IMG/VR virus record: IMGVR_UViG_2516143027_000009
Reading direction: 5' to 3' (one strand)
DNA from: a virus
Taxonomy: Duplodnaviria; Heunggongvirae; Uroviricota; Caudoviricetes
Length of the DNA stretch: 43,233 bases
In this document: positions 3,389-41,298 of the stretch, in pieces
Layout of the letters: every line of letters starts with the position of its first letter
Position numbering within the stretch: the stretch's first letter is position 1
Program-made: the position numbers and the translations under genes
Notes under the pieces: model-generated
The model's input: the letters and a program-made list of their open reading frames with translations, nothing else
Told to the model about the DNA's origin: nothing
The model's database searches: none

Positions 3389-6300
3389 AACGTTCTTCCA
3401 GAGACTGAATCCGCTCTTTTATCTTATCCATTTCTCTGCGCTGCCATGCCGCCTCGATATAGAATAAGAGATCAGGTCTGACCCCCCATCTAGATCCTGC
3501 TGGCGTTATTTCAACGCGCTCAATGATGTCTTCCATTACCATCACTGGATTATCATCCTCATCAACAATGATGCTCCCTTCATTATCAGTCAGCGGCATT
3601 TCCCTTTGGCCAGTAATGACGTCATCATATACTGCGGGATAATCGTCATAGCAAAGAAAGGCATAGCGGCATGTTGTGCTTTCTTCTTCCATGAGTCCGT
3701 GAGAAATAAGAACATCACGAAGTTGCTGCGCGATTACACCATGATGTATCCTCGCCCCTTCTTCCCCCTTTATAGCGACAGCGTTCAGCCATTTATAAGC
3801 GATATACCTGACGTCACCCCAGGCATCCAGCAATGCTTCGTCAGGAGAGACCGGCTCTGTCTTTAATGTTCCGTCACTGGTAACCACAGGATTGGAGCCA
3901 AGATAAACTGTCGAGAACCTGTTTCCCGGACCACCAAGAGCATTTACATTATCAAGATAAGGTTTAACATCTCCGTTCTCAAAAAGATGTTCGAGTGCGT
4001 TATATACCGCGCGACGTGGAGTACTGCTTCCGGAACCATGCAACGTTATCATTGCACCATCTGCTGAAGACGTTGTTTCACCGCCGCTAACGATTAATCT
4101 CTGAGCGGTAACATCATCAGACGGTACTTTCTTCGCAATAATGGCGTAATTACCCTCAAGTTTGACTTCCGCGCGAACTTGTCCTGATGTACCTGCATGG
4201 ACAGTCAGTGACTGGACGGCAACATCATCTGTGAAATCAACGGGTACAGGAACCGTCCTCACGCCTGACGTCGACATAAAAGTAGGAAGCGTTCTGTTAG
4301 GAGTGGCTCCGTAGACAAAATCCCTTGAAACAAATTCTTCCTGTTTAATTTTCACCCTGAAACAATACAAATCAGCCGGGTGACCATCGTGAACATAAGG
4401 ATATTTTCTGTTGTTATCCCCTATGCTCCATGGGTTTAGAAAGTCTTCCCCACCGAAAATGTAGTACAGCCAGTTGTCTTTGATACAAACTGAACCAACA
4501 CCAACCGCAGAGTTAACTATTCCGCCCTGATAAATCTGATCAGTAACATTAACCCACTCTACATTATCCAGACTCCACTCATTGACGTTAACTCTGGTCA
4601 TAAATGTTCTTGGATAATTTCCTGCATAACGGTTATCAGGTTCTCCTCCTTCCCACTCACCAAATGCGCGCTCACTGCCAAAAATAATCAGCTCATCGCC
4701 AACTTTGGCAAAAGGAAGGTTTGAGTGATGAACATTATTTGGGAAGCGAAGAGAATTCCATGATGTACCTAAATCAGAGCTTCTGTGCAATGAACTACCG
4801 GGTTGAGTACTTAATGTCCCCCTGGTCGTCAGATACAGAATGCCATCATAATATTTTACACATGGCTCAGATGCATTCGCCTCATATTCTGCAGGTATGC
4901 GTCTGCGAACAAAGCTACCAGGAGAACCGAAAGCATCAGAGAAATAGAGTATCCCAAGCTCGCGTGGACCAATATCACCATTATGGTAGCCAACAGCAAA
5001 ACTGTTATCGCTAATCGTCGCAAAACTGTGAATCTCAGTAACAGGAGTGCTTCCGTCAACAAAAGAAGGAATAGTTCCAAGACTGGTTTTTCTCCATGGT
5101 GACGAGTGAAATGATGTACCAAAACTCCAGTATCTACCCTCGTTATTCTGATCCACATCCTGGGTATTTTGCGTCGTAACTGTAAAAGTATTTTTATCAA
5201 TAACAGTAGTCACCGTCATATTCCCGGTAACACCTGTAACACCAGAGTTTGAGAAGTTGACAAAATCACCAGCAAATAATCCGTGATCAGTAATGCGAAT
5301 ATAAGCGACTTGCTGATTTGCTGCTTTCGTTATACCACCATAAACGCGAAGGCTGCGACTCATTGGGCGATCCCACAACTCTGCAACCTGCAGTTTATTT
5401 CCGCTCACGGTCCGCGTCTCAATTACAGCAAAAAGGCGATTTCTGACAACCCCCATACTCATGCAGTGATAGTTAACTGTGGGATAGTTTTCATGTAAAT
5501 CTGTAAGCCATTCCGGCGTTGTCCAGGTCTTCCCGTCATCTCCTGAGCGAACCCATGCAACATGGAGGTTATTTACACCATGGCGGTCTCCAGCCATAAA
5601 AGGCGCATAGATGACATTGTCATATACAAACGTTTTATCCTGCGTCCAGGCGTTGTACCACGGTGTATCTGTAATTTTAAATAACTCTCCCTGGATAAAA
5701 TCTTCAGAAGCATAAAAAAGAGGCTGACCCGGTATTCTCTCAAATAAAAAACGAGCATTTTTAAATCGACTGACATCCGGAAGAGTTGATACTTTAAAAG
5801 TAAGCCCTAATCCGTCAATTTTATAACCTGGAGATGAGGCTTCAAGGCACGCGCTTATTGCAGTGGAATCGTCATTTATACCATCACCAACAGCTCCAAA
5901 ATCTTTGGGGCTAATAGCATCACGCATTTTATCCTGGAACGTTCGGTACACAGCCCCAGAACCATACTGAATAAACCAACCAAAACCACCAACAACCCCG
6001 GCGATTGCAGCATCGACATAATTACGCATTGAGCGATTATTTACAGCGTCCTGCTCAAATGATGGATCTGCAAGGTTAGAAATTTTGTTTTGCTTTGCAT
6101 CGTAATATTTTGCAAGCAAAGATGGTTTCATCAATGCACGTCTGAACCACCCAAAACATTGCTGGATCAGCATCGTCAGGTAGTCAAAGGCATCTTCATG
6201 CACTTCGGGGAAAAATTTTCCCTGATTGCGAAGGTCTGTCTCCTGCACTACATCAAGCACACGATCTATCGTAATTCGCCATCCAGTAGCAAGCGGAGAC

Positions 6301-7838: not shown

Positions 7839-7929
7839 ATTTACATCGCACTCCTCTTGTGCCATAGTAATCGGGCACTGGCAAAATCCAGTGCCGGGAT
7901 TGGCGTCCCGGGTTACTAAGTGGCGCATA

Positions 7930-7951
7930 CCACGCCAGACGTGGTTTTTTT
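7930..7951 (+). terminator. Intrinsic terminator inside the 5' leader of the BRO-domain antirepressor gene
   Basis: Hairpin CCACG-CCAGA-CGTGG followed by T7; about 150 nt upstream of the 8108 start codon. Confidence 0.45.
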
Positions 7952-8107
7952 ATGCGTTAAGCACAGCTATATCCGAATTATGGTGGGCTGGGCAGGGGTC
8001 CGAAAGGACGCCGGTACCACTTAGGCCGGTACGCCAACCTTGTCCAGTTCACCACCAGTAATTGGCGTTGCGGTGGTGATTAAAATCACTAAGTGGAGAT
8101 AACCACC

Positions 8108-8818
8108 ATGGCTAATGCTCAAACTTCCATCTTCAAATTTGAATCTGTTAACCCTATCCGTTCCATCATTATCGATGGCCAACCATGGTTTGTAGCCCAA
8201 GACGTTTGTAGTGCGCTGCGTATCCAAAACGTCACCCAAGCACTTGAAAAACTGGATGATGATGAAAGGTCTATGTTCAACATAGGGCATGAACATCGTG
8301 CAATTTTTGACAGCCGAGTAAAAGAGATCAACATCATCTCCGAGTCAGGCCTCTACACACTGATCCTCCGCTGCCGCGACGCAGTGACACCAGGCACTAT
8401 CCCCTACCGCTTTCGTAAATGGGTTACAGGTGAGGTTCTTCCTCAGATCCGCCGCACCGGAAGTTACATTAAAAACTCGCTCCCGCAGGAAGAACGCATA
8501 AAGATGGTTGCCGACCAGGTAGCCAACGCCACGGCGTCAGCAGTAATGCAGGCGATGAAGATAGAGAACAAAACCTACAGTGCCCCACTGAAGCCCGGCT
8601 ACCGTAGCCTGATTCATTCGCCGTCTGGTGTTCTCGGCCTGACGGAGAACTCACTGCTGATGAATCTGCTGAACCAGTTACAGGAAGACGGGCACGACGT
8701 ATCGGGCGCGGCGGCGGAACTGACCACCATGTTCTGCTACATCGTCGGTGTGAGCAAATGCCTGCGTGATATCCAGACCCACGCGGAGTACATCAACGAC
8801 AAGGCAGGGTTCTTCTGA
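8108..8818 (+). CDS. Antirepressor-like protein, N-terminal BRO-N domain fused to the shared C-terminal module
   Basis: N-terminal region typical of the BRO-N family (IFKFE...IDGQPWFVAQDVCSAL); RBS AAGTGGAG before ATG 8108; C-terminal 80 aa near-identical to the 9930 and 41299 products. Confidence 0.7.
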   Translation: MANAQTSIFKFESVNPIRSIIIDGQPWFVAQDVCSALRIQNVTQALEKLDDDERSMFNIGHEHRAIFDSRVKEINIISESGLYTLILRCRDAVTPGTIPYRFRKWVTGEVLPQIRRTGSYIKNSLPQEERIKMVADQVANATASAVMQAMKIENKTYSAPLKPGYRSLIHSPSGVLGLTENSLLMNLLNQLQEDGHDVSGAAAELTTMFCYIVGVSKCLRDIQTHAEYINDKAGFF

Positions 8819-8840
8819 CGGCGGCGGCACAGGGACGTGC
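8576..8840 (+). repeat. Copy A of a ~260-bp near-identical repeat (3' end of BRO gene plus about 20 bp after the stop)
   Basis: Near-identical to 41706..41970 (direct) and 9906..10160 (inverted); estimated over 95% identity by eye. Confidence 0.8.
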
Positions 8841-9694: not shown

Positions 9695-9856
9695 ATGAAA
9701 AAAGCATTTGCTGCACTGTTCGTTTTGTTGTCTCTGGTAGCTTCAACTCAGGCCTTTGCCGGTCGTTGTCAGCACGACAGCGATACTGCCGCTGACGGCT
9801 CCCGCTGCGGTGGGCGTTCTGCGGATTCCCGCCCGGGTGGCGGTGGCATTCGTTAA
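9695..9856 (+). CDS. Small secreted Cys/Gly-rich peptide (hypothetical)
   Basis: 53 aa from Met MKKAFAALFVLLSLVASTQAFA with a signal peptide; promoter-like TTGACG..TATAGA upstream; weak RBS. Confidence 0.35.
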   Translation: MKKAFAALFVLLSLVASTQAFAGRCQHDSDTAADGSRCGGRSADSRPGGGGIR

Positions 9857-9905: not shown

Positions 9906-10160
9906 GCACGTCCCTGTGCCGCCGTTCTGTCAGAAGAACCCTGCCTTGTCGTTGATGTATTCCGCGTGCGTCTGGATATCACGCAGGCATTTGCTCACAC
10001 CAACGATGTAGCAGAACATGGTGGTCAGCTCCGCCGCCGCGCCCGATACATCGTGCCCGTCTTCCTGTAACTGGTTCAGCAGATTCATCAGCAGTGAGTT
10101 CTCCGTCAGGCCGAGAACACCCGACGGCGAATGAATCAGACTGCGGTAGCCTGGCTTCAA
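9906..10160 (-). repeat. Copy B (inverted) of the ~260-bp repeat
   Basis: Reverse complement matches copies A and C, including the post-stop segment. Confidence 0.8.
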
Positions 10161-10868
10161 TGGATAACCATAACATTTTGTCTGTGTTTTAATTGCCTCA
10201 CGAAGCGCATCTAACATCTTGACTGCCACTTCATCATTCTCTGATGCAGATCCAGCAGGGAGATACTCCCCTTCAAGCGGAACCCGAGCAACAAGAGACA
10301 ACGCTTCGGCAAATTGATCTTCACCAATTTCTTTGTACGAACAGCCAAAATGAGATTTCAGTGACGACCACATGGTGATCATCGCCTTAGCCTGTTTTTC
10401 TTTTGGCAGAGACTGACCGCGACTCATGACGAGTTGTTTAATGGCTTCCTGCTGTTCAGTTGTTATTTTACCCGGCAACGCCTTTTTAGCTTTGCGTGGG
10501 TTAACCACATGGCCTTTAGTCCAGTACTCGTAGAGCACATCGTCACACTCTTCCTGATACTGGATTACCTTGTCGCGGATTTCAGGGCGGACTTTGTTAG
10601 GGCTGATGCTGTTCAACCAAGCTGCCAATTTTCGTAAAGCCATACAAATCATGGCTTGCACCCCACCGGCAGAAGGTATGGTGATTTCCACCATACCCTT
10701 CGAGAAGCGTTGAGAAATCTTCTTATGTTGAGATTTCCAGTCTAGCCCCATTCCCTCAACGATAGGTTTCATTGGGGTATACGGTTCGCCGTTGTGATTG
10801 ACAACATAAAGCTCTGCGCCGTGGAATGGCACGTTGATAGTAGATACTGCTGTTGCTATACTCGTCAT
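9930..10868 (-). CDS. ant: Antirepressor Ant-like protein (P22 Ant N-terminal-like domain plus shared C-terminal module)
   Basis: N-terminal FHGAELYVVNHNGEPYTPMKPIVEGMGLDWKSQ resembles the P22 antirepressor N-domain (from memory); located downstream of an Arc-like gene with a divergent Mnt-like gene, as in P22 immI. Confidence 0.65.
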   Translation of the reverse strand: MTSIATAVSTINVPFHGAELYVVNHNGEPYTPMKPIVEGMGLDWKSQHKKISQRFSKGMVEITIPSAGGVQAMICMALRKLAAWLNSISPNKVRPEIRDKVIQYQEECDDVLYEYWTKGHVVNPRKAKKALPGKITTEQQEAIKQLVMSRGQSLPKEKQAKAMITMWSSLKSHFGCSYKEIGEDQFAEALSLVARVPLEGEYLPAGSASENDEVAVKMLDALREAIKTQTKCYGYPLKPGYRSLIHSPSGVLGLTENSLLMNLLNQLQEDGHDVSGAAAELTTMFCYIVGVSKCLRDIQTHAEYINDKAGFF

Positions 10869-10942
10869 GTCGTTAATTCCTATACGTAGTTTTACGATAC
10901 TGAAGCCCTGACGGTCTGGCCACCGTGGGGCTTCGCTGTTTT
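10869..10942 (+). ncRNA. Candidate sar-like antisense RNA (antisense to the ant RBS and arc 3' end)
   Basis: Plus-strand promoter TTGATA-17 bp-TATACT at 10834..10862 inside the ant 5' end; hairpin 10902..10934 followed by a T-rich tract gives a predicted transcript of about 70 nt. Confidence 0.4.
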
Positions 10943-11108
10943 ATGCCACGCTATTCTTCTCACCAGTGAGTCCATACACTTTCCTCAGCTGATAGATAAT
11001 CTCTGTATTGAACTTTCGGCATTCTTTTTCGCCATTTCTTTCAATAGCTAACTTCACATCGTCCGGAAAACGAACTCGTCGTTGACACATCTCTTTTGCT
11101 TTTTGCAT
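10941..11108 (-). CDS. arc: Arc-like ribbon-helix-helix repressor
   Basis: 55 aa from ATG 11108 with RBS AAGGAG; motif RVRFPDDVKLAIERNGEKECRKFNTEIIYQL matches the Arc/Mnt RHH pattern. Confidence 0.65.
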   Translation of the reverse strand: MQKAKEMCQRRVRFPDDVKLAIERNGEKECRKFNTEIIYQLRKVYGLTGEKNSVA

Positions 11109-11228
11109 TTCATATCTCCTTAGCCCCACCGTGGGGCAAAATAATTGTCACACCGTGCGTCATTGATGTCAAGCACACGGTGAGGCATACTTCAATCATT
11201 GCAAGTAACTCAATATTTGGTGAAGAAC

Positions 11229-11660
11229 ATGAGCAGAGAAGATCCACAACTAAGGATCAGACTTCCCGTCGAAGTAAAAGAAAAAATAGAAATTTCTGCA
11301 AAAGCCAATAAGCGATCAATGAACGCTGAAATAGTACAACGTCTTGACACCAGCTTTCTGAAAGATATTCATGAAGATGACGTAATTTCTGCTTATGAAG
11401 CAAAAATCATTGCAAACAATGCACGACATGAAATATCAAATATTATTTTCAAAAGAACCTTTAATGAAATTAATAAGAAAATAACACTTGGACATACAAG
11501 TTTTTATATAAACCTTAATGACCTTGAACTGGAATCACTTGCAGATAATGATTACCAGATCATCTTTGAAAAAACATTTAATAGGCTCAATGAACTAGGT
11601 TACATCATCTGTGAAAACTCATGGGATGCAGATGGTTTTGGAATTGAAATACCTGAATAG
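11229..11660 (+). CDS. mnt: Mnt-like ribbon-helix-helix repressor with a C-terminal extension
   Basis: N-terminus MSREDPQLRIRLPVEVKEKIEISAKANKRSMNAEIVQRL closely parallels P22 Mnt; divergent from arc-ant; AT-rich. Confidence 0.65.
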   Translation: MSREDPQLRIRLPVEVKEKIEISAKANKRSMNAEIVQRLDTSFLKDIHEDDVISAYEAKIIANNARHEISNIIFKRTFNEINKKITLGHTSFYINLNDLELESLADNDYQIIFEKTFNRLNELGYIICENSWDADGFGIEIPE

Positions 11661-11749
11661 GAAGAACAAAAGGCGTGTACATATTACACGTCTTTAATAC
11701 AATTGAAAAACGCCACATTACTGATGTATGTTACAACAAGGAGCGATAT

Positions 11750-12314
11750 TTTGAAAACCATATCTATATTAAAGGTTGCATTAGGCGTCGCTATTATTTT
11801 GACTCTCTCAATATTGTTTTATTTTTACCACAAACAAACTGCTATTGCTCTTGATAGTCACGCGGCAAACTCATTTTTCTCAGAGTACATAGTGCCGCTA
11901 TCAGGAAGCGGTATAACAAATAAATATACTGACTATGACATCAAATATGGAATTGATGATGGGGAGACTATTGTATTACATGTAATCATTAAAAACCTAA
12001 TGACAGTAAATAAAAATACAGACTTCAACGATAAAAATACAATACATCACAACAACAGCAAAACATTAATTTCTTATAGTAGCAACATCTATACGGATAA
12101 ATACCTAAAATACATATCAGAAGATACAATAAAAGAAACCCGCGAAAAGTTAAAAAACATATATTGTGCATCCGGCAGTTTTCACAAATTATCGCCGCAA
12201 GAGCGTTTATTCTACGAAGCAAGAAAACAACGTAAGTCAATAATATTACATTATTATGCTGATTCAGGGGAGACACTCATATTTAATATTGGGGTTTCCC
12301 CTGAATCATGCTAA
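11750..12314 (+). CDS. Single-pass membrane protein, candidate superinfection-exclusion protein (sieA-like position)
   Basis: AAGGAG RBS 7 nt before a TTG start (alternative starts ATG 11724 or TTG 11703); N-terminal TM helix; very AT-rich; lies between mnt and the ejection-protein genes. Confidence 0.5.
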
Positions 12315-12325
12315 AGGTGTTTAAC

Positions 12326-13438
12326 TCACCGCATCACCGGATCCACTTGGTTTATTAGTGGCGCAATCCAGAACAGGTTATTGCCGGGTATCAGGGTTCG
12401 GACATTATGCACAATACGATCACCGGCATCACCATTCAACACTCCTGAGGTCACATCAATGATGCTATCCGCAAGACCAAATGACGGTCCGAATAGAGAT
12501 CCTACGAATCCACGACTGGCATACCTGGACTGTGTGCCAGTGCCAAATAAAGCCCCCAGCCCAACAGCACCACCAGTCGCCTTTTCAGCCATGTTGTTAT
12601 ATTCCATCAATGGCCCAAGAATACCGGATCTATCTATACCCTCAAGCACCAGCTTCTCTGGTGACCAGTCAACATTTTTCCCTTTCGATGCTTCTTTAAG
12701 CGCATAGACCAGTGAGCCAAGAGCAATCTGAAATGCAGTGCCATAATAAAATTGCGCAGTTCCTTCCTGTAACCCACCAAGTAGCGCACGGTTGTATGAA
12801 GCCGTTGTGAATGATTTAAACTGAAATATCGTTCGCCCCATTGGAGTACTCGCCCATAAAGGTGTGTCACCAATACCGGGGGTGATGATAGTGTTATTAA
12901 CGTCTTTCAGAACCGCTGACTGGAATACTCCGGCAACGTACTGATCGTCCCATTTATCAAAGTTACCAATGTGCCATCCATCAATTACCTCACCATGTTT
13001 CTCGAACTCACTGCGAATACGCGCAGCCATATTGTCGTTGATACCGAGTTTTGCCATGCGACGTGCAGAAAACGCACCAGACAAAATACCGTCTGACGTG
13101 AGCATTCCGTTCATGGATTTGTTTATGTCATTAAATCGATCCATGAGTGTCAGCTTGCCGAAGGCATCAGTAATTCGCTCCATTCCTGCTTCGACTGCTG
13201 TTGTCCTGGAAGAACTGTCAACAAGATCACCAATTGCACGAGAACGTGAATGTAGTACAGTTTCCAATCCAATCCCCATCTTCAACATCTCTTCTTTGCT
13301 GGCCTTAAATGCCGGTGATTGGGATATCTGAGAAGCATAGCCTTTCATGGAGTTACGGAAACCATTAACCATAACCCCTCTGGCCAGATCTGGAATAGCT
13401 GATACTGTCATTCCACCGAGTTTGGTCGTGAAGTTCAC
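12326..13438 (-). CDS. Internal virion or ejection protein
   Basis: 370 aa, Gly/Ser-rich, last gene of the internal-protein cluster; position by analogy with T7-like gene order. Confidence 0.55.
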   Translation of the reverse strand: MNFTTKLGGMTVSAIPDLARGVMVNGFRNSMKGYASQISQSPAFKASKEEMLKMGIGLETVLHSRSRAIGDLVDSSSRTTAVEAGMERITDAFGKLTLMDRFNDINKSMNGMLTSDGILSGAFSARRMAKLGINDNMAARIRSEFEKHGEVIDGWHIGNFDKWDDQYVAGVFQSAVLKDVNNTIITPGIGDTPLWASTPMGRTIFQFKSFTTASYNRALLGGLQEGTAQFYYGTAFQIALGSLVYALKEASKGKNVDWSPEKLVLEGIDRSGILGPLMEYNNMAEKATGGAVGLGALFGTGTQSRYASRGFVGSLFGPSFGLADSIIDVTSGVLNGDAGDRIVHNVRTLIPGNNLFWIAPLINQVDPVMR

Positions 13439-15339
13439 ATCCCGCAGAAAAGCGCCAGCACGAACAAAAACGAAGACGGGTCATCAGGCATACCATATGT
13501 ACCAACAAGACGATCGCGTAATGCTGTTATGTCTCTGAGATCATTTGCTCTTGATTTTGAAAGTCTGGACTGTTCTTTCCGTAATTCCTTTTCGTACTTT
13601 CGCATTAATGAATCGAGTTTACCCTGAGGAACAACTTCACCATTGCTCTCATAACGTGCTTTCAGATTTGCCACACTTTCGTCATATTTCGCCTTTATTT
13701 TTTCAGGCACTTCCCGTAACAGACTGTCATATTCGTCCTCAATTAATTGCAGACGCTCTGTCATAGTTCGTTTGCCAAATGTTCTCGTCAACTCAATTTC
13801 TGCTGCCGCTTCACGGATATGACGTTGTAGAACGTAATTCACATCACTTTCGAGATAATCCCTGATAAGACTATCAGGCACATTTAATGTTCTTTCTTTC
13901 GTACTACCTGCGGCTTTTACAGAAAATACGCTGACAAAATCCTGTGGAACCTTAGCACCAGTAATTTTATTAATTACGATATCCGCTGCAATTTCAGCAT
14001 CCTCAGGATCCAGTGTTTTATTGCCTCTCGACCACCAGTCAACCAAAATACGTCGAAATTTATCGCGTTCACTGATTATTTTTCCAACTTTATATATACG
14101 TGGGAAATAGCTTGCCTGGCCTAATGCTTTCAGTTCTTCATCTGGCGGCAATAAACCAAGCTTTTGCATTTCAACCTTCACCCGATTTAATACAGTTCGC
14201 ATCGCCTGCGCCGTTTCCTGAACAACAGGATTAGCATGCACATCACCGCTTCGCATAGCATTCCCAACCTGCTGACGAAATGAATCAAAACTCATGTCAC
14301 CACCATCAGCTTTATACTTTGCGTATGCCTGTTTATTTCCGACAACAACAGCAGCTTCTTCACGCTGCCATCCACGTGTACGGGTTTCTACAGCTACCGG
14401 TGTTTCAATCCCCCTTTCATTTCCTTTAAGGGTGAAATTATTTTCGGCTAACTCCAGCGTTGTTTTTCGCACTGTCTTGGACGGAGACTCCATTAACCTT
14501 GTCAAAGGAGTAAGATAGCTCCCTGCTTTCCATGCAGCCTTTCCAACCACCCCACCGGAAACAGGGGTTAAATCATCCAGAGTCGCTGTATCAATTTTCA
14601 TAGCACCAACACTACCACCATCAGAAAGCGAAGCGGCAGCCCTGTCAGTCGCTGATGTAATGCTCATATTATCAAGAGCATCAGCAACCTCACGCGTGGC
14701 TGCAGCCCGGACGGATGGCGAAAGCGCAACACCAGCACTGGCAAACACGCCGCTCATCATCGCACCCGCTGCAATGTGAGCGGCACTTTCACCCCATGAG
14801 CGTGTTATTTGCTGATTATTCAGCACAACCTCGCTTAATGCTGTACCGGCTGCACCAATCGCAATCTGTGAGCCAATACGCGCCAGTGCCCCTCCTTGAG
14901 CACCGGGGATAAACATTGACGCAACAGTAACCGGATCCATTCCCGCAGCAATACTGGCAAGGGTTCCAACTACGCCAGCATCAGACAATAAACGTCTGTC
15001 TTCATTTTCATCATCTATCTGCTGCTTAATCCACGCCGTTTCCTCTGGCGATCGGGAATCTGCAAATTTCGCCCCCCAGTATTCATAACCGTGCAACTCA
15101 TTTTTATCAGCATATGGGTTATAACCTTCGACCGGTTCAAACTGTCTGGCTGGTCGGAAAAAACCAGCCAGAATATTGTTCTGTCGCATTGCAGCCCCCC
15201 ATACGGAAGGCTCCGGTGGCAATGGCTCAGGATTAGCCCCTTCCGGAAGGGCAACATCAAACCCAGTTTGTTCCGGCAAAACATTACCTGACGGGATCAG
15301 TCCGTTATTAAGATCTTCAGCTTGTGCATAAACTGGCAT
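13435..15339 (-). CDS. Internal virion or ejection protein
   Basis: 634 aa, contiguous with the neighbouring internal virion protein genes on the minus strand. Confidence 0.55.
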   Translation of the reverse strand: MPVYAQAEDLNNGLIPSGNVLPEQTGFDVALPEGANPEPLPPEPSVWGAAMRQNNILAGFFRPARQFEPVEGYNPYADKNELHGYEYWGAKFADSRSPEETAWIKQQIDDENEDRRLLSDAGVVGTLASIAAGMDPVTVASMFIPGAQGGALARIGSQIAIGAAGTALSEVVLNNQQITRSWGESAAHIAAGAMMSGVFASAGVALSPSVRAAATREVADALDNMSITSATDRAAASLSDGGSVGAMKIDTATLDDLTPVSGGVVGKAAWKAGSYLTPLTRLMESPSKTVRKTTLELAENNFTLKGNERGIETPVAVETRTRGWQREEAAVVVGNKQAYAKYKADGGDMSFDSFRQQVGNAMRSGDVHANPVVQETAQAMRTVLNRVKVEMQKLGLLPPDEELKALGQASYFPRIYKVGKIISERDKFRRILVDWWSRGNKTLDPEDAEIAADIVINKITGAKVPQDFVSVFSVKAAGSTKERTLNVPDSLIRDYLESDVNYVLQRHIREAAAEIELTRTFGKRTMTERLQLIEDEYDSLLREVPEKIKAKYDESVANLKARYESNGEVVPQGKLDSLMRKYEKELRKEQSRLSKSRANDLRDITALRDRLVGTYGMPDDPSSFLFVLALFCGM

Positions 15340-18056
15340 TATTTAGATCCCCACGAAAAGTAATCTTTAAATTTGTCCATACGTTCGTTATGCAGGCGCT
15401 GATACTGCTCATCCAGAGCGCGATGCTTGTCTTTGAAGTTTCGTATAGCCTGTCCACGCATAATTTCTTCCTGCTCGTACTGCTCCCGTTCCTGCTGCAT
15501 TTTCTTATAAGGTTCCCAATCTTCTAGTGATGGTTCCCAACGCATAGGACGCCCATGTTTGTTATAAAACGGCTGGACCCGATCGATGCCATTTTCATCC
15601 TTAGTTCTTACCATAATGGCGTAATCACCATTACGAGGTGTTAACACGTCAGGGGTTATGAATAATTCTCCATTAATACGACTCTCAGGGGTTTTTGTCT
15701 CAACTACAGGAGCATTACCTGACGTGATCCCAAGCAACGTCGGACTGGTTGTTATAATCTCTTTGCGCTCACCGTACATCAGCCGTTCTTTTTCAGCTTT
15801 CCACTGCGCCGCCTGCCAGCCTGACGGCCCATATTGATAAAGCGCCTCCGGTGCATATTTCATAAACTGCGCTTCTCCGTTAACCTCGCTGATACTCCAG
15901 GTGCGGGCTATCTGCTGGTTGGTCATTTGCTTCGCTACGTCAGCGTTACCACCAGCAACGCGGTAGTTAATGTCATACAGCGTCTGATAGTCATTACGGA
16001 ATCTAGCTGCTTCCGGCGTCTGGTCATCCGCAGACGGATCCCAACGGAACCACTGCGCCATATTGCTGACAGCAGAATTCATCGCCTTGCTGCGATTATT
16101 TTTGTACTCTTTTGAACTCTGCGTTGATGCCAATTGAGCTTTAAGAGCATCGGTCTGGTTGTACGTCAGGTTCTGCGCCTGCTCGATAGCCGCATCAGCA
16201 GACATGCCAGAATCTGTTAGTTGCTTAACAGTCAGATAAAAACCCTGCATATCCTTCGGCATATTTCCAATAGATGCATTGTCTGTTTCATATAACCGAC
16301 TAAACAAATTCGCTGCATTTTTAACCACTTCCTGATTGCTGGATCTGGATACTGCTGAAAGCTGCGTGATGACCTGCGAAGGCATGATGCCAGTCTGAGC
16401 CACAAGCCGAACAACCCCATCATGAGTGGAGGCATCATTAATACGAAAGTTCTGCGCCATTTCTGTGTAATCAGCAGCTTTCTGCATTGATTTGTTGCTT
16501 GGGTCTAATTTTTCACCTATTGTCAGCGCCTCATTGAATCTGCGTGAATCACGTTGCGCCTGAATTGCTTCATTTGATCGCTGAAGCAATGCAGACAATT
16601 TTCCGTAAGCATCGAGTTTTAACGCATAGTGAGGATCGTTAACCTCAGGCTTCACTTTCTGCATTTCTTCTTGCTGCTGAGAAGGAGGTAAATACTGAAT
16701 TGCCTGGAATATTCTCGCGTTATCAATCGCTATATCCAGTTGATTGATTATTTTATCTGCATTTTTTCCATACCCCCTGATGATAGTCTCCTGAGCCGGT
16801 ATATAATCTGGAACCTCACCGTTATATAGCTGGGCCATGGTGTTATTAATAGCTGGCTCAAGCTGTTCTAATATTAACTTCCTTTGCTTTTCTATCTGAC
16901 TATTAGCAAGGTTATCTATTTGATAAATAGTCAGCGGATCCATTCCAGTTTTATTTTTTCTATATCGGGAAAGCCACCCTTGTGTTTCTGATGGAAGATT
17001 TCGGATAAATTCTTCTTCTGATATTTCACCTTTACGTGGATCACCGACTTTGGCGATCAGTTTATCCACGTTACCCATCCCCCAGTTATATGCTGCTCCG
17101 GTCAATATTTCGGAGCCGTACTTACCATACAGTTGATTTACATAGTCACTGGCGAGCATTTCATGCTGTTGTTCGTCCGTAGGGTTGTATTTAACGCCAC
17201 GCTTGGCCGCCAGTTCTTTCCCTGTGCCCGGCATTAACTGGTATTTCCCCTGGGCTCTCTCTCCAGAAGATGTTATCGGTCCTTCAAGAAGACTACCATC
17301 AGGATTAAAATGTCGATCACCTGATTCAACAAGGCGTATGGCACGCATGTCCATGCCTCCAGAATCATTTTTCTGAAACAGACCATTTAGCCATCCTTCT
17401 GGATTGGCAGCGGCATAATTCTTCGCCCGCATTTCTGTGGCACGGCGATCATCACTTTCTATTTCTTCCAGAATGCGTTCTTGTGACCATCCCCTGGCAG
17501 CTCCATATCTAGCAATGGCTACCATTCTGGAATTTCTGGCTAAAGTGGCAGTTTGCGGGTCATTCCAGGCATCCGCTTCATTTTGTATCCATAATTTTCT
17601 CGTTGCCTGATATTGCTCATCTTCATAGGCATTTGTCTGCCCTATCTCATGTCTGAGAACTCCAGTACTGAACTGAATTTTCTGTGTTCTGGCTTGTTGC
17701 AAAAACATATTTCTTGCTGCTTCATCAGTCAATGAAGCAGCTATTTCTTCCACATCCTGATCAAATCCAGATATGTACTCTTGCCCCTTACCAATCGCAT
17801 TTTTGCCTTGTTGTGCATAAAAACCGGTTTGAGGGTTATAAAGACGTTCATTGCTGCGCTGATTAAGCTGAAGGATGGCATCCTGAGACAATGCAACATT
17901 CGCTTTCTGCCTGGCTTCACCATATGCCACCGCATACTGATCTGCGACATTCGCCAGCACCTGACCTGCTTGAGGAACATCGAAGATCTGAAAACCACCG
18001 GTTTGCACACCACGACTTTGCACCTGGCGTCCGGATGTAGTAGGAACAACAGGCAT
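15339..18056 (-). CDS. Internal virion protein with lytic transglycosylase (SLT-like) domain
   Basis: 905 aa; segment ESGDRHFNPDGS...GERAQGKYQLMPGTGKE resembles the SLT catalytic region; position equivalent to T7 gp15/gp16. Confidence 0.65.
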   Translation of the reverse strand: MPVVPTTSGRQVQSRGVQTGGFQIFDVPQAGQVLANVADQYAVAYGEARQKANVALSQDAILQLNQRSNERLYNPQTGFYAQQGKNAIGKGQEYISGFDQDVEEIAASLTDEAARNMFLQQARTQKIQFSTGVLRHEIGQTNAYEDEQYQATRKLWIQNEADAWNDPQTATLARNSRMVAIARYGAARGWSQERILEEIESDDRRATEMRAKNYAAANPEGWLNGLFQKNDSGGMDMRAIRLVESGDRHFNPDGSLLEGPITSSGERAQGKYQLMPGTGKELAAKRGVKYNPTDEQQHEMLASDYVNQLYGKYGSEILTGAAYNWGMGNVDKLIAKVGDPRKGEISEEEFIRNLPSETQGWLSRYRKNKTGMDPLTIYQIDNLANSQIEKQRKLILEQLEPAINNTMAQLYNGEVPDYIPAQETIIRGYGKNADKIINQLDIAIDNARIFQAIQYLPPSQQQEEMQKVKPEVNDPHYALKLDAYGKLSALLQRSNEAIQAQRDSRRFNEALTIGEKLDPSNKSMQKAADYTEMAQNFRINDASTHDGVVRLVAQTGIMPSQVITQLSAVSRSSNQEVVKNAANLFSRLYETDNASIGNMPKDMQGFYLTVKQLTDSGMSADAAIEQAQNLTYNQTDALKAQLASTQSSKEYKNNRSKAMNSAVSNMAQWFRWDPSADDQTPEAARFRNDYQTLYDINYRVAGGNADVAKQMTNQQIARTWSISEVNGEAQFMKYAPEALYQYGPSGWQAAQWKAEKERLMYGERKEIITTSPTLLGITSGNAPVVETKTPESRINGELFITPDVLTPRNGDYAIMVRTKDENGIDRVQPFYNKHGRPMRWEPSLEDWEPYKKMQQEREQYEQEEIMRGQAIRNFKDKHRALDEQYQRLHNERMDKFKDYFSWGSK

Positions 18057-18631
18057 CAGTAACCTCCTATTTTGAATCGGGAGTCAGAATTCATAAAACC
18101 TGAGTTAGATAACATTGGCGTCCCACCACTAGATGTACTTCCTTTAGAGAACGGACTCCACGTCCCACCAAACATCTGGTACGCACCGTATGCCTTCAGA
18201 GGCGCAGTGAGCAATGTTGTTGCTGCTCCCACATTCCCCTGTTTACGGGCTGAACTGGCTTCTGCTTTATAGTTGGCAGCCTGAACCTGATAACCGTAAG
18301 CCTCGCGTTGCGCGTTATTCACCGTCGTCAGAGAATCAAGAGCGCCAAACTGGGCAGTGTCGCCAAATATATCCAGCGCGTTACCTGTAGATAAATCAGC
18401 GCCGGTAGCCCCCATTGTCGCCGCCTGTGTACCAAGCCGCTGTCGGGTCTCTCTGCGCCGTTGCTCAGCTTCAGCGTTACCTCTGTTTATTGCATCATTT
18501 GCCTGAGCTGTGGCTATATCTGCGTTCGCTTCTGCAACCTTCGAGGCATACTTTCCCTGTTGGTACTGGGTGTATGCCTGAATGCCACTCATGGCGAGCA
18601 TTGCGCCACCAGCAATAACCGGATCGCACAT
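18056..18631 (-). CDS. Internal virion protein (T7 gp14-like position)
   Basis: 191 aa, Ala/Gly/Gln-rich; gene order. Confidence 0.5.
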   Translation of the reverse strand: MCDPVIAGGAMLAMSGIQAYTQYQQGKYASKVAEANADIATAQANDAINRGNAEAEQRRRETRQRLGTQAATMGATGADLSTGNALDIFGDTAQFGALDSLTTVNNAQREAYGYQVQAANYKAEASSARKQGNVGAATTLLTAPLKAYGAYQMFGGTWSPFSKGSTSSGGTPMLSNSGFMNSDSRFKIGGY

Positions 18632-27382: not shown

Positions 27383-27459
27383 GTGGCATTAGCTCAGTTG
27401 GACAGAGCAACCGCCTTCTAAGCGGTTGGTCGCAGGTTCGAATCCTGCATGCCACGCCA
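27383..27459 (+). tRNA. tRNA-Arg (anticodon UCU), phage-encoded
   Basis: Cloverleaf by eye: acceptor GTGGCAT/ATGCCAC, D-arm GCTC-AGTTGGAC-AGAGC, anticodon stem ACCGC/GCGGT with loop CTTCTAA, T-arm GCAGG-TTCGAAT-CCTGC, discriminator G and encoded CCA. Confidence 0.85.
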
Positions 27460-41135: not shown

Positions 41136-41298
41136 GCCTGCAATCTGGCATAGTCACATCCGTACAAAGGTCGGGTGGAGAGGCGTAATACAACACCCGA
41201 AAGGGGAATATGCCCGGAGCTACTGTTTGTGCTCTAGTTGACACCCGATCACCAGCTACTAACTGGTTTTCGTAACTAAAAACAAACAGGAGGTCATC

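Follow-up and report, generated by a model that had tools for sequence, protein, structure and literature searches.

The window, by which we mean the whole stretch of 43,233 nucleotides that was analysed, belongs to a prophage of the TL-2011b/phiV10-like type, a Uetakevirus (epsilon15/phiV10 type podovirus; PMC9782041). From 9930 to 11660 it holds an immI-type gene order in which a mnt-like gene diverges from arc-ant. A first-pass annotation of this DNA had recognised the immunity I layout of phage P22 in an ant gene, a 55-aa Arc-like gene and a divergent Mnt-like gene, and the Pfam, PDB and PHROG assignments of Ant and Mnt agree with it. The locus carries the following genes and features:

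9930..10868, minus strand: ant, antirepressor, 312 aa (PF10547 P22_AR_N; PHROG 524/245)
10834..10862, plus strand: Psar, with -35 TTGATA (10834..10839), a 17-nt spacer and a TGn-extended -10 TATACT (10857..10862)
10869..10942, plus strand: predicted sar antisense RNA of about 74 nt (Rfam RF00262; fold; our own covariance model R1)
10941..11108, minus strand: arc-like gene, 55 aa, first of the Pant operon, with Shine-Dalgarno sequence AGGAG at 11120..11116
11123..11137, no strand assigned: site 1, candidate Mnt operator, a perfect 15-bp palindrome GCCCCAC-C-GTGGGGC
11144..11172, minus strand: Pant, with -35 TTGACA (11172..11167), a 17-nt spacer and a TGn-extended -10 GACAAT (11149..11144)
11149..11159, no strand assigned: site 2 (centre 11154), CACAC-C-GTGCG, in the Pant spacer and overlapping its -10
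11163..11191, plus strand: putative Pmnt, TTGATG, a 17-nt spacer and CATACT, read from the sequence
11174..11184, no strand assigned: site 3 (centre 11179), CACAC-G-GTGAG, just upstream of the Pant -35 and inside the Pmnt spacer
11229..11660, plus strand: mnt-like gene, 143 aa (PF03869; 1mnt; PHROG 1388)

Residues 12-121 of Ant match the P22_AR_N domain (PF10547, E 5.9e-45 in Pfam), and the protein belongs to PHROG 524/245, anti-repressor Ant. We place the start of ant at the ATG 10868..10866, which is favoured by a P22-like geometry and by the Shine-Dalgarno sequence AGGA 9 nt upstream (10881..10878). In the region of the RefSeq E. coli annotation that was fetched, the Arc-like protein is named hypothetical and ant is begun 12 codons downstream; in NZ_CP126940 (L069, 3131..4033) RefSeq passes over the ATG adjoining sar and begins ant 36 nt further downstream.

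The Mnt-like protein carries an Arc-like DNA-binding domain (PF03869, E 1.1e-14 in Pfam), matches PHROG 1388 over its full length and has P22 Mnt as its best solved relative (1mnt, E 3.4e-7, aligned from residue 3). Its AF2 model (pLDDT 82) has helices at residues 14-26 and 31-44, and the protein consists of an N-terminal ribbon-helix-helix domain joined to an unrelated alpha/beta C-terminal domain of about 95 aa. This 95-aa domain stands in place of the tetramerising C-terminal domain of P22 Mnt (PMC3325190), which is absent from the Mnt-like protein. The head, MSREDPQLRIRLP, does not vary among the viral loci, and the C-terminal domains attached to it there are of at least four unrelated kinds. 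Across 34 homologues with 59-68% overall identity, drawn from many genera of Enterobacterales, it is almost constant, with substitutions of L8 and of L12 in a few sequences each. At the DNA-facing positions the protein and all 34 have Gln, Arg and Arg; the aligned reading residues of P22 Mnt are His6, Asn8 and Arg10. The mnt-like gene of TL-2011b differs by an extra G in codon 8 (L001, about position 5310; window 11252), reading CTAAGGGATC as against CTAAGGATC. Through the resulting frameshift the DNA-binding head is lost, and the annotation of TL-2011b has just an ORF of 113 aa at this place; the window copy is intact.

The sequence evidence is weaker for the second repressor than for the other parts, and the 55-aa gene is read as probably Arc-like. 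The ORF is placed between Pant and ant, directly upstream of the latter, as in P22, whose Arc of about 53 aa is likewise encoded first in the Pant operon. Its product is 33% identical to P22 Arc from residue 1 in a pairwise alignment and matches PHROG 228, Arc-like repressor, with an E of 3.4e-5, and hhalign relates its family to that of the Mnt-like protein with 77.5% probability. There was no match in Pfam and nothing useful in NCBIfam; against PDB sequences only spurious matches to TALE repeats and designed proteins appeared, none significant, and PDB profiles matched Arc only at E 0.08-0.2. The AF2 model is of low confidence (pLDDT 59.5) and contains two helices, 16-25 and 27-44, placed as in a ribbon-helix-helix protein.

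Inside the 5' end of ant, embedded in codons 3-12, lies a plus-strand promoter sequence directed toward the arc-ant junction. The first-pass annotation had reported it as TTGATA-17-TATACT; it is present as described, with an additional TG before the -10, and it scores 10/12 against consensus in a promoter scan. The region shows no excess of promoter-like sites over shuffles (4 against 3.6 expected), so the consensus match of Psar alone is weak evidence. Every one of the 21 unique variants has the -10 hexamer, as TAnnnT, in ant codons 3-4, and 15 of them have the TGn too, over Ant N-termini that differ widely (at least eight different sequences). Such conservation would be expected where a promoter is kept in bases that also have to encode protein. 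The annotated sar promoter of P22 likewise sits in the first codons of ant, in the same place as the putative Psar.

After TATACT come six bases, the last three of which (CAT) are complementary to the ant ATG, and then G10869, likely the first base of sar RNA. The predicted RNA is encoded antisense to the arc-ant junction and covers the ant ribosome-binding site (10878..10881). The Rfam sar model RF00262 matches 10870..10937(+) over its full length (1-68/68) with 44.8 bits and E 5e-6, which is 1.8 bits above the gathering score of 43. Stem-loop I (10869..10898) holds the anti-SD UUCCU in its loop, and the terminator hairpin (10901..10935) is followed by GCUGUUUU, a U-tract that overlaps the arc stop codon TAA at 10941..10943. 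This is the hairpin with T-tract that had been expected behind the promoter; a simple terminator scan did not list it. The region 10869..10943 folds into the two hairpins at -24.1 kcal/mol (z = -2.35; 4 of 200 shuffles fold as well), a fold that resembles that of P22 sar. P22 sar, as annotated, likewise starts at the base adjoining the ant ATG and overlaps the arc stop codon with its 3' end. In the window, what comes after the hairpin on the ant-sense strand is AGUAUCGUAAAAC instead of a U-tract, and Pant transcripts should therefore read through into ant. P22 sar RNA has been detected in infected cells, and its described role is pairing with the ant ribosome-binding site, stopping Ant translation (PMC13397905); by analogy, the RNA predicted here would repress Ant translation at the window locus. 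A search for trans targets of sar within the window returned only its own locus and a 12-mer in common with site 1.

The same two-hairpin fold is obtained for each of the 18 distinct junction sequences, with inner terminator stems of several unrelated sequence types. These stems were misaligned in a MAFFT alignment (A1), which we replaced with one made with a covariance model of our own (R1). The model finds the sar element beside arc/ant in all 27 other sources searched, P22 included. In its alignment 93% of the cells pair, and 10 of the 19 pairs have changed on both sides; the same is true of four of the five pairs of stem-loop I, which is not a terminator. Covariation scores 0.384 on this alignment and 0.184 on shuffles, of which none in 500 attains the observed value, and pairs with slid partners reach at most 0.09; the alignment was fitted to the structure of the model, which favours this score somewhat. 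An antisense RNA of about 70 nt over the ant ribosome-binding site, as had been predicted from the letters, is thus borne out at the sequence level by the RF00262 match, the geometry equal to that of P22 and the covariation.

One could still argue that the hairpin 10901..10935 is merely a terminator or mRNA-stability element lying near a plus-strand promoter that arose by chance, and that there is no functional antisense RNA. The frequency of promoter-like matches, no higher than in shuffles, the modest fold z-score of -2.35 and the RF00262 score barely over the gathering score would all fit such an account. It does not, however, explain why 21 variants whose Ant N-termini are unrelated all retain the -10 hexamer in the same codons, nor why stem-loop I, which terminates nothing, covaries as well (4/5 pairs changed on both sides). 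Moreover, as AGUAUCGUAAAAC, which comes after it on the ant-sense strand, is no U-tract, the hairpin should terminate plus-strand transcripts only, and the homologous P22 RNA has been detected in infected cells (PMC13397905). We therefore regard a terminator without an antisense RNA as very unlikely and retain sar.

Read on the arc strand, the arc-mnt control region is CACCGTGTG-c-TTGACA-tcaatgacg-CACGGTGTG-ACAAT-tattttg-CCCCACGGTGGGG-cta-AGGAG-atatgaa-ATG. Pant matches the consensus at 10/12 in the promoter scan, and its block is almost invariant in relatives. The putative Pmnt matches at only 8/12, below the threshold of the scan; relatives have TTGCTG-17-CATAAT at its place. The two promoters would stand back-to-back, with overlapping -35 hexamers.

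The motif on which the first-pass annotation had drawn attention occurs here as CACCGTG at 10921, 11127 and 11151 and as CACGGTG at 11176, the last two being the pair that it had located in the divergent region at 11149..11182. CACSGTG as such is not unusual in the 43-kb window (6 copies against 4.8 expected); its clustering is, with four of the six copies in 262 bp (P ~1e-5). The longer form CNCACSGTGNG occurs three times in the window, always within 11125..11184, where 0.27 would be expected and none of 100 shuffles reaches 3, and CCACSGTGG occurs twice against 0.25 expected. Sites 1-3 are conserved in 63 related loci while flanks and spacers drift. Among 27 unique control regions the stretch from site 3 to the Pant -10 is an almost invariant block and site 1 reads GCCyCAC-N-GTGrGGC, between spacers that vary freely. 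At the centre of sites 1 and 3 the relatives have C, G, A or T, as expected at an uncontacted symmetry centre.

Site 1 (centre 11130) covers about +1..+15 of Pant, starting 7 nt past the Pant -10, so that a symmetric palindrome lies at the predicted start site. Its 9-bp core, CCACCGTGG, is that of the annotated P22 mnt operator, whose position is likewise equal: the P22 operator, AGGTCCACCGTGGACCT, also starts 7 nt after the Pant -10. We propose that site 1 is the Mnt operator. Site 2 reads GCACGGTGTG on the arc-sense strand in all 27 unique relatives and sits where P22 has its Arc operator. Site 3 is a full CCCCAC-N-GTGGGG palindrome in more distant relatives and is weaker, CCTCACCGTGTGC, in the window and in close relatives with an identical Arc-like protein. 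Between site 3 and the mnt start, some 85-105 nt upstream of arc, the more distant relatives L024..L064 have a conserved near-palindrome, TTCACAATAWGTAAA, perhaps another operator or else an element of the mnt leader; its counterpart in the window is only a diverged version, CTTGCAATGATTGAA.

As candidate operators, the three copies of the motif between arc and mnt, kept in 63 loci, stood up, and the copy at 10919..10930, within the sar terminator, did not. If all four copies were operators, a repressor bound in the arc-ant junction might also control readthrough into ant or the termination of sar, and the identity of 10920..10931 with 11126..11137 (12/12), together with the presence of CCACCGTGG at site 1 and in the terminator copy and nowhere else in the window, could be taken in this sense. 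A 12-mer match of this kind has, however, an E of 0.14 within the window. Six near-identical loci read CAACGGTGG at the terminator copy, other and more distant relatives have entirely different inner stems in which pairing alone is kept, and the left half, GGCCAC, is without the CnCAC form. We consider a fourth operator unlikely and have rejected this copy, which is lost in near-identical relatives; it is probably not an operator, and the ACGGU/ACCGU stem, of which it would be a by-product, explains it best. A different question is whether the GCCCCAC-N-GTGGGGC elements act as DNA at all, or instead as RNA hairpins (a stabiliser or attenuator) in the arc-ant 5' leader. Transcripts from Pant include site 1, which could fold into a stem of 5 bp, and the change at +/-4 in locus L064, which is symmetric (T...A), would suit an RNA stem as well as an operator. 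Sites 2 and 3, on the other hand, have the same motif within promoter spacers that are transcribed from neither promoter, and asymmetric variants such as GCCCCACAGTGAGGC are tolerated. Site 1 also has the core and position of the experimentally defined P22 mnt operator, and the motif co-occurs with an invariant ribbon-helix-helix reading head, all of which makes RNA hairpins extremely unlikely and favours DNA operators at the three sites.

The reading residues offer a further view of these sites. The Arc-like family aligns with Gln, Arg/Lys and Arg at the positions where the Mnt-like protein has Q-R-R; P22 Mnt has H-N-R and P22 Arc Q-N-R. As both repressors of the window carry Q-R/K-R residues, they may read the same core, and for the same reason the sites cannot be assigned one by one to the Arc-like or the Mnt-like protein. 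One may speculate that the cassette represents a distinct, widespread immI sub-type, in which two paralogous repressors with one reading head (Q-R/K-R) face one operator motif (CnCAC-N-GTGnG) repeated three times over back-to-back Pant and Pmnt; we put this forward as a tentative and rather doubtful idea. If such a sub-type is real, Arc and Mnt would compete for sites or share them, as opposed to the separate operators of P22. The interchangeable C-terminal domains of the Mnt-like protein, of which there are at least four, might set its oligomerisation or its sensitivity to some signal.

The likeness to P22 immI extends to gene order and orientation, to the position, length, two-hairpin shape and promoter placement of sar, to an operator at Pant +1 with the core CCACGGTGG, to the ribbon-helix-helix N-terminus of Mnt and to the P22_AR_N domain of Ant. 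Nucleotide searches did not reach P22, which was compared via its annotated record, and there is no similarity of DNA outside sar. The two also differ in the promoters, superimposed in P22 and back-to-back in the window; between the Pant -35 and -10 P22 has a 21-bp Arc operator with TAGA boxes, whereas the window has CACAC-C-GTGCG, a copy of the Mnt-type palindrome; and the host phage of the window cassette is of the epsilon15/phiV10 type. Also akin are the "ant morons" described in P22-like phages (epsilon34, CUS-3, HK620, Sf6 and others; Villafane et al. 2008, PMC2629481), with which the window shares a mobile, variable cassette of ant with Mnt/Arc repressors inserted beside virion genes, here in a podovirus that is not P22-like. 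CUS-3 has 94% DNA identity to the window over the 5' part of ant and sar, as far as the sar terminator; the similarity breaks at the sar hairpin, no arc gene is annotated in CUS-3, and its mnt genes are different. Escherichia phage TL-2011b (NC_019445) carries the same cassette (gp40-gp42, 96-99.6% identical), and its annotation uses the names "anti-repressor Ant" and "Arc-like repressor". In the immI region of P1/P7, where C4 antisense RNA controls ant, a small antisense RNA likewise limits antirepressor synthesis, but C4 is of a different RNA family, is processed from a leader and acts upstream of the gene, and there are no Arc/Mnt repressors.

What the analysis shows is sequence, structure and conservation; how the cassette would work we infer by analogy with P22. 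The Mnt-like ribbon-helix-helix repressor, expressed from Pmnt in the lysogen, would occupy the palindrome 11123..11137 at Pant +1, and probably also the related sites at 11154 and 11179, keeping arc-ant silent. Upon infection, or if Mnt is lost, Pant would fire and Arc and Ant would be made. Ant is then expected to inactivate the main prophage repressor, and the Arc-like protein to shut Pant down again. In parallel, the sar RNA of about 74 nt from Psar would pair with the ant ribosome-binding site (10878..10881) and block translation of Ant.

Several further features of the prophage were observed. Gathering-level Rfam matches to isrK (7875..7951, plus strand) and C4 antisense RNA (7976..8059, plus strand) lie directly upstream of a Bro-N antirepressor-like ORF (8093..8818, plus strand), so that the prophage carries a second antirepressor module, with RNA control of the P1/P7 or Gifsy type, about 2 kb from sar/ant. 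In the related phage ZX5, an overexpressed Bro-N anti-repressor promoted the lytic cycle (PMC9782041). The two convergent ant-type genes share their C-terminal ~80 aa (window 8550..8840 and 9906..10198), and these ends form a 270-nt inverted repeat, 91% complementary; a perfect repeat of 19 nt follows immediately after the stop codons. Enclosed by the repeats is a segment of 1.1 kb that carries other genes in TL-2011b and in APEC E18055, with a YafO-family toxin in APEC E18055; the segment may represent a cargo slot prone to recombination. Between the two ant genes of the window lies a small ORF (9695..9856, plus strand) with a signal-peptide-like start (MKKAFAALFVLLSLVASTQAFA) and a Cys/Gly-rich tail. 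Just downstream of mnt and on the same strand is a 203-aa ORF (11703..12314, plus strand) with an N-terminal hydrophobic segment, in PHROG 8033 (unknown function); in P22 its place is held by orf59a and sieA, which are downstream of mnt and expressed from the prophage. The virion gene at 12326..15339 (minus strand) is split into 634 and 370 aa in the window and is a single CDS of 1004 aa in TL-2011b and APEC E18055. The split, near 13436, is caused by an A-run shorter by one base (A5 as against A6), either a frameshift mutation or a homopolymer sequencing error. An sRNA-Xcc1 match (Rfam, 64.8 bits, gathering score 53) at 41169..41258 (plus strand) and a tRNA-Arg gene (anticodon UCU) at 27383..27459 (plus strand) were also found.

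The complete cassette is present in 36 of 5426 complete E. coli genomes. A search using the Arc-like protein found a relative of it in 63 viral contigs, and similar junctions occur also in CUS-3, Salmonella phage Oslo and a Klebsiella phage. In a megablast comparison phiV10 aligned only from about 18150 of the window on, with no match over the cassette-adjacent 12300..18150; judged from this adjacent region alone, the cassette itself not being in the comparison, phiV10 may lack the cassette. The annotated regions of TL-2011b and of the RefSeq E. coli genome list neither a sar gene nor operators, and judging from the regions fetched, automatic annotation misses parts of the cassette: sar and the operators are unlisted, Arc is "hypothetical" and the ant start is set 12 codons downstream.

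Taken together, the locus amounts to a complete, if unremarkable, version of the phage P22 "immunity I" switch, housed in an E. coli prophage of a different phage type, and we are confident that it is best described as a P22-type immI cassette, or "ant moron", carried by a TL-2011b/phiV10-like prophage. The data support the original observation and, largely, its interpretation, with an operator logic modestly distinct from that of P22. The cassette opens no new question, and a complete immI set in a phage that is not P22-like agrees with published descriptions of the "ant moron", which present it as mobile and variable (PMC2629481). It does add a natural set of Mnt/Arc variants and operators that is usable for studies of ribbon-helix-helix specificity. 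For the biology of these phages, the finding means that the whole P22 immI circuit, small RNA included, moves as a cassette into unrelated temperate phages, the recipients being an epsilon15/phiV10-like podovirus in the window and, among its relatives, siphoviruses and a Klebsiella myovirus.
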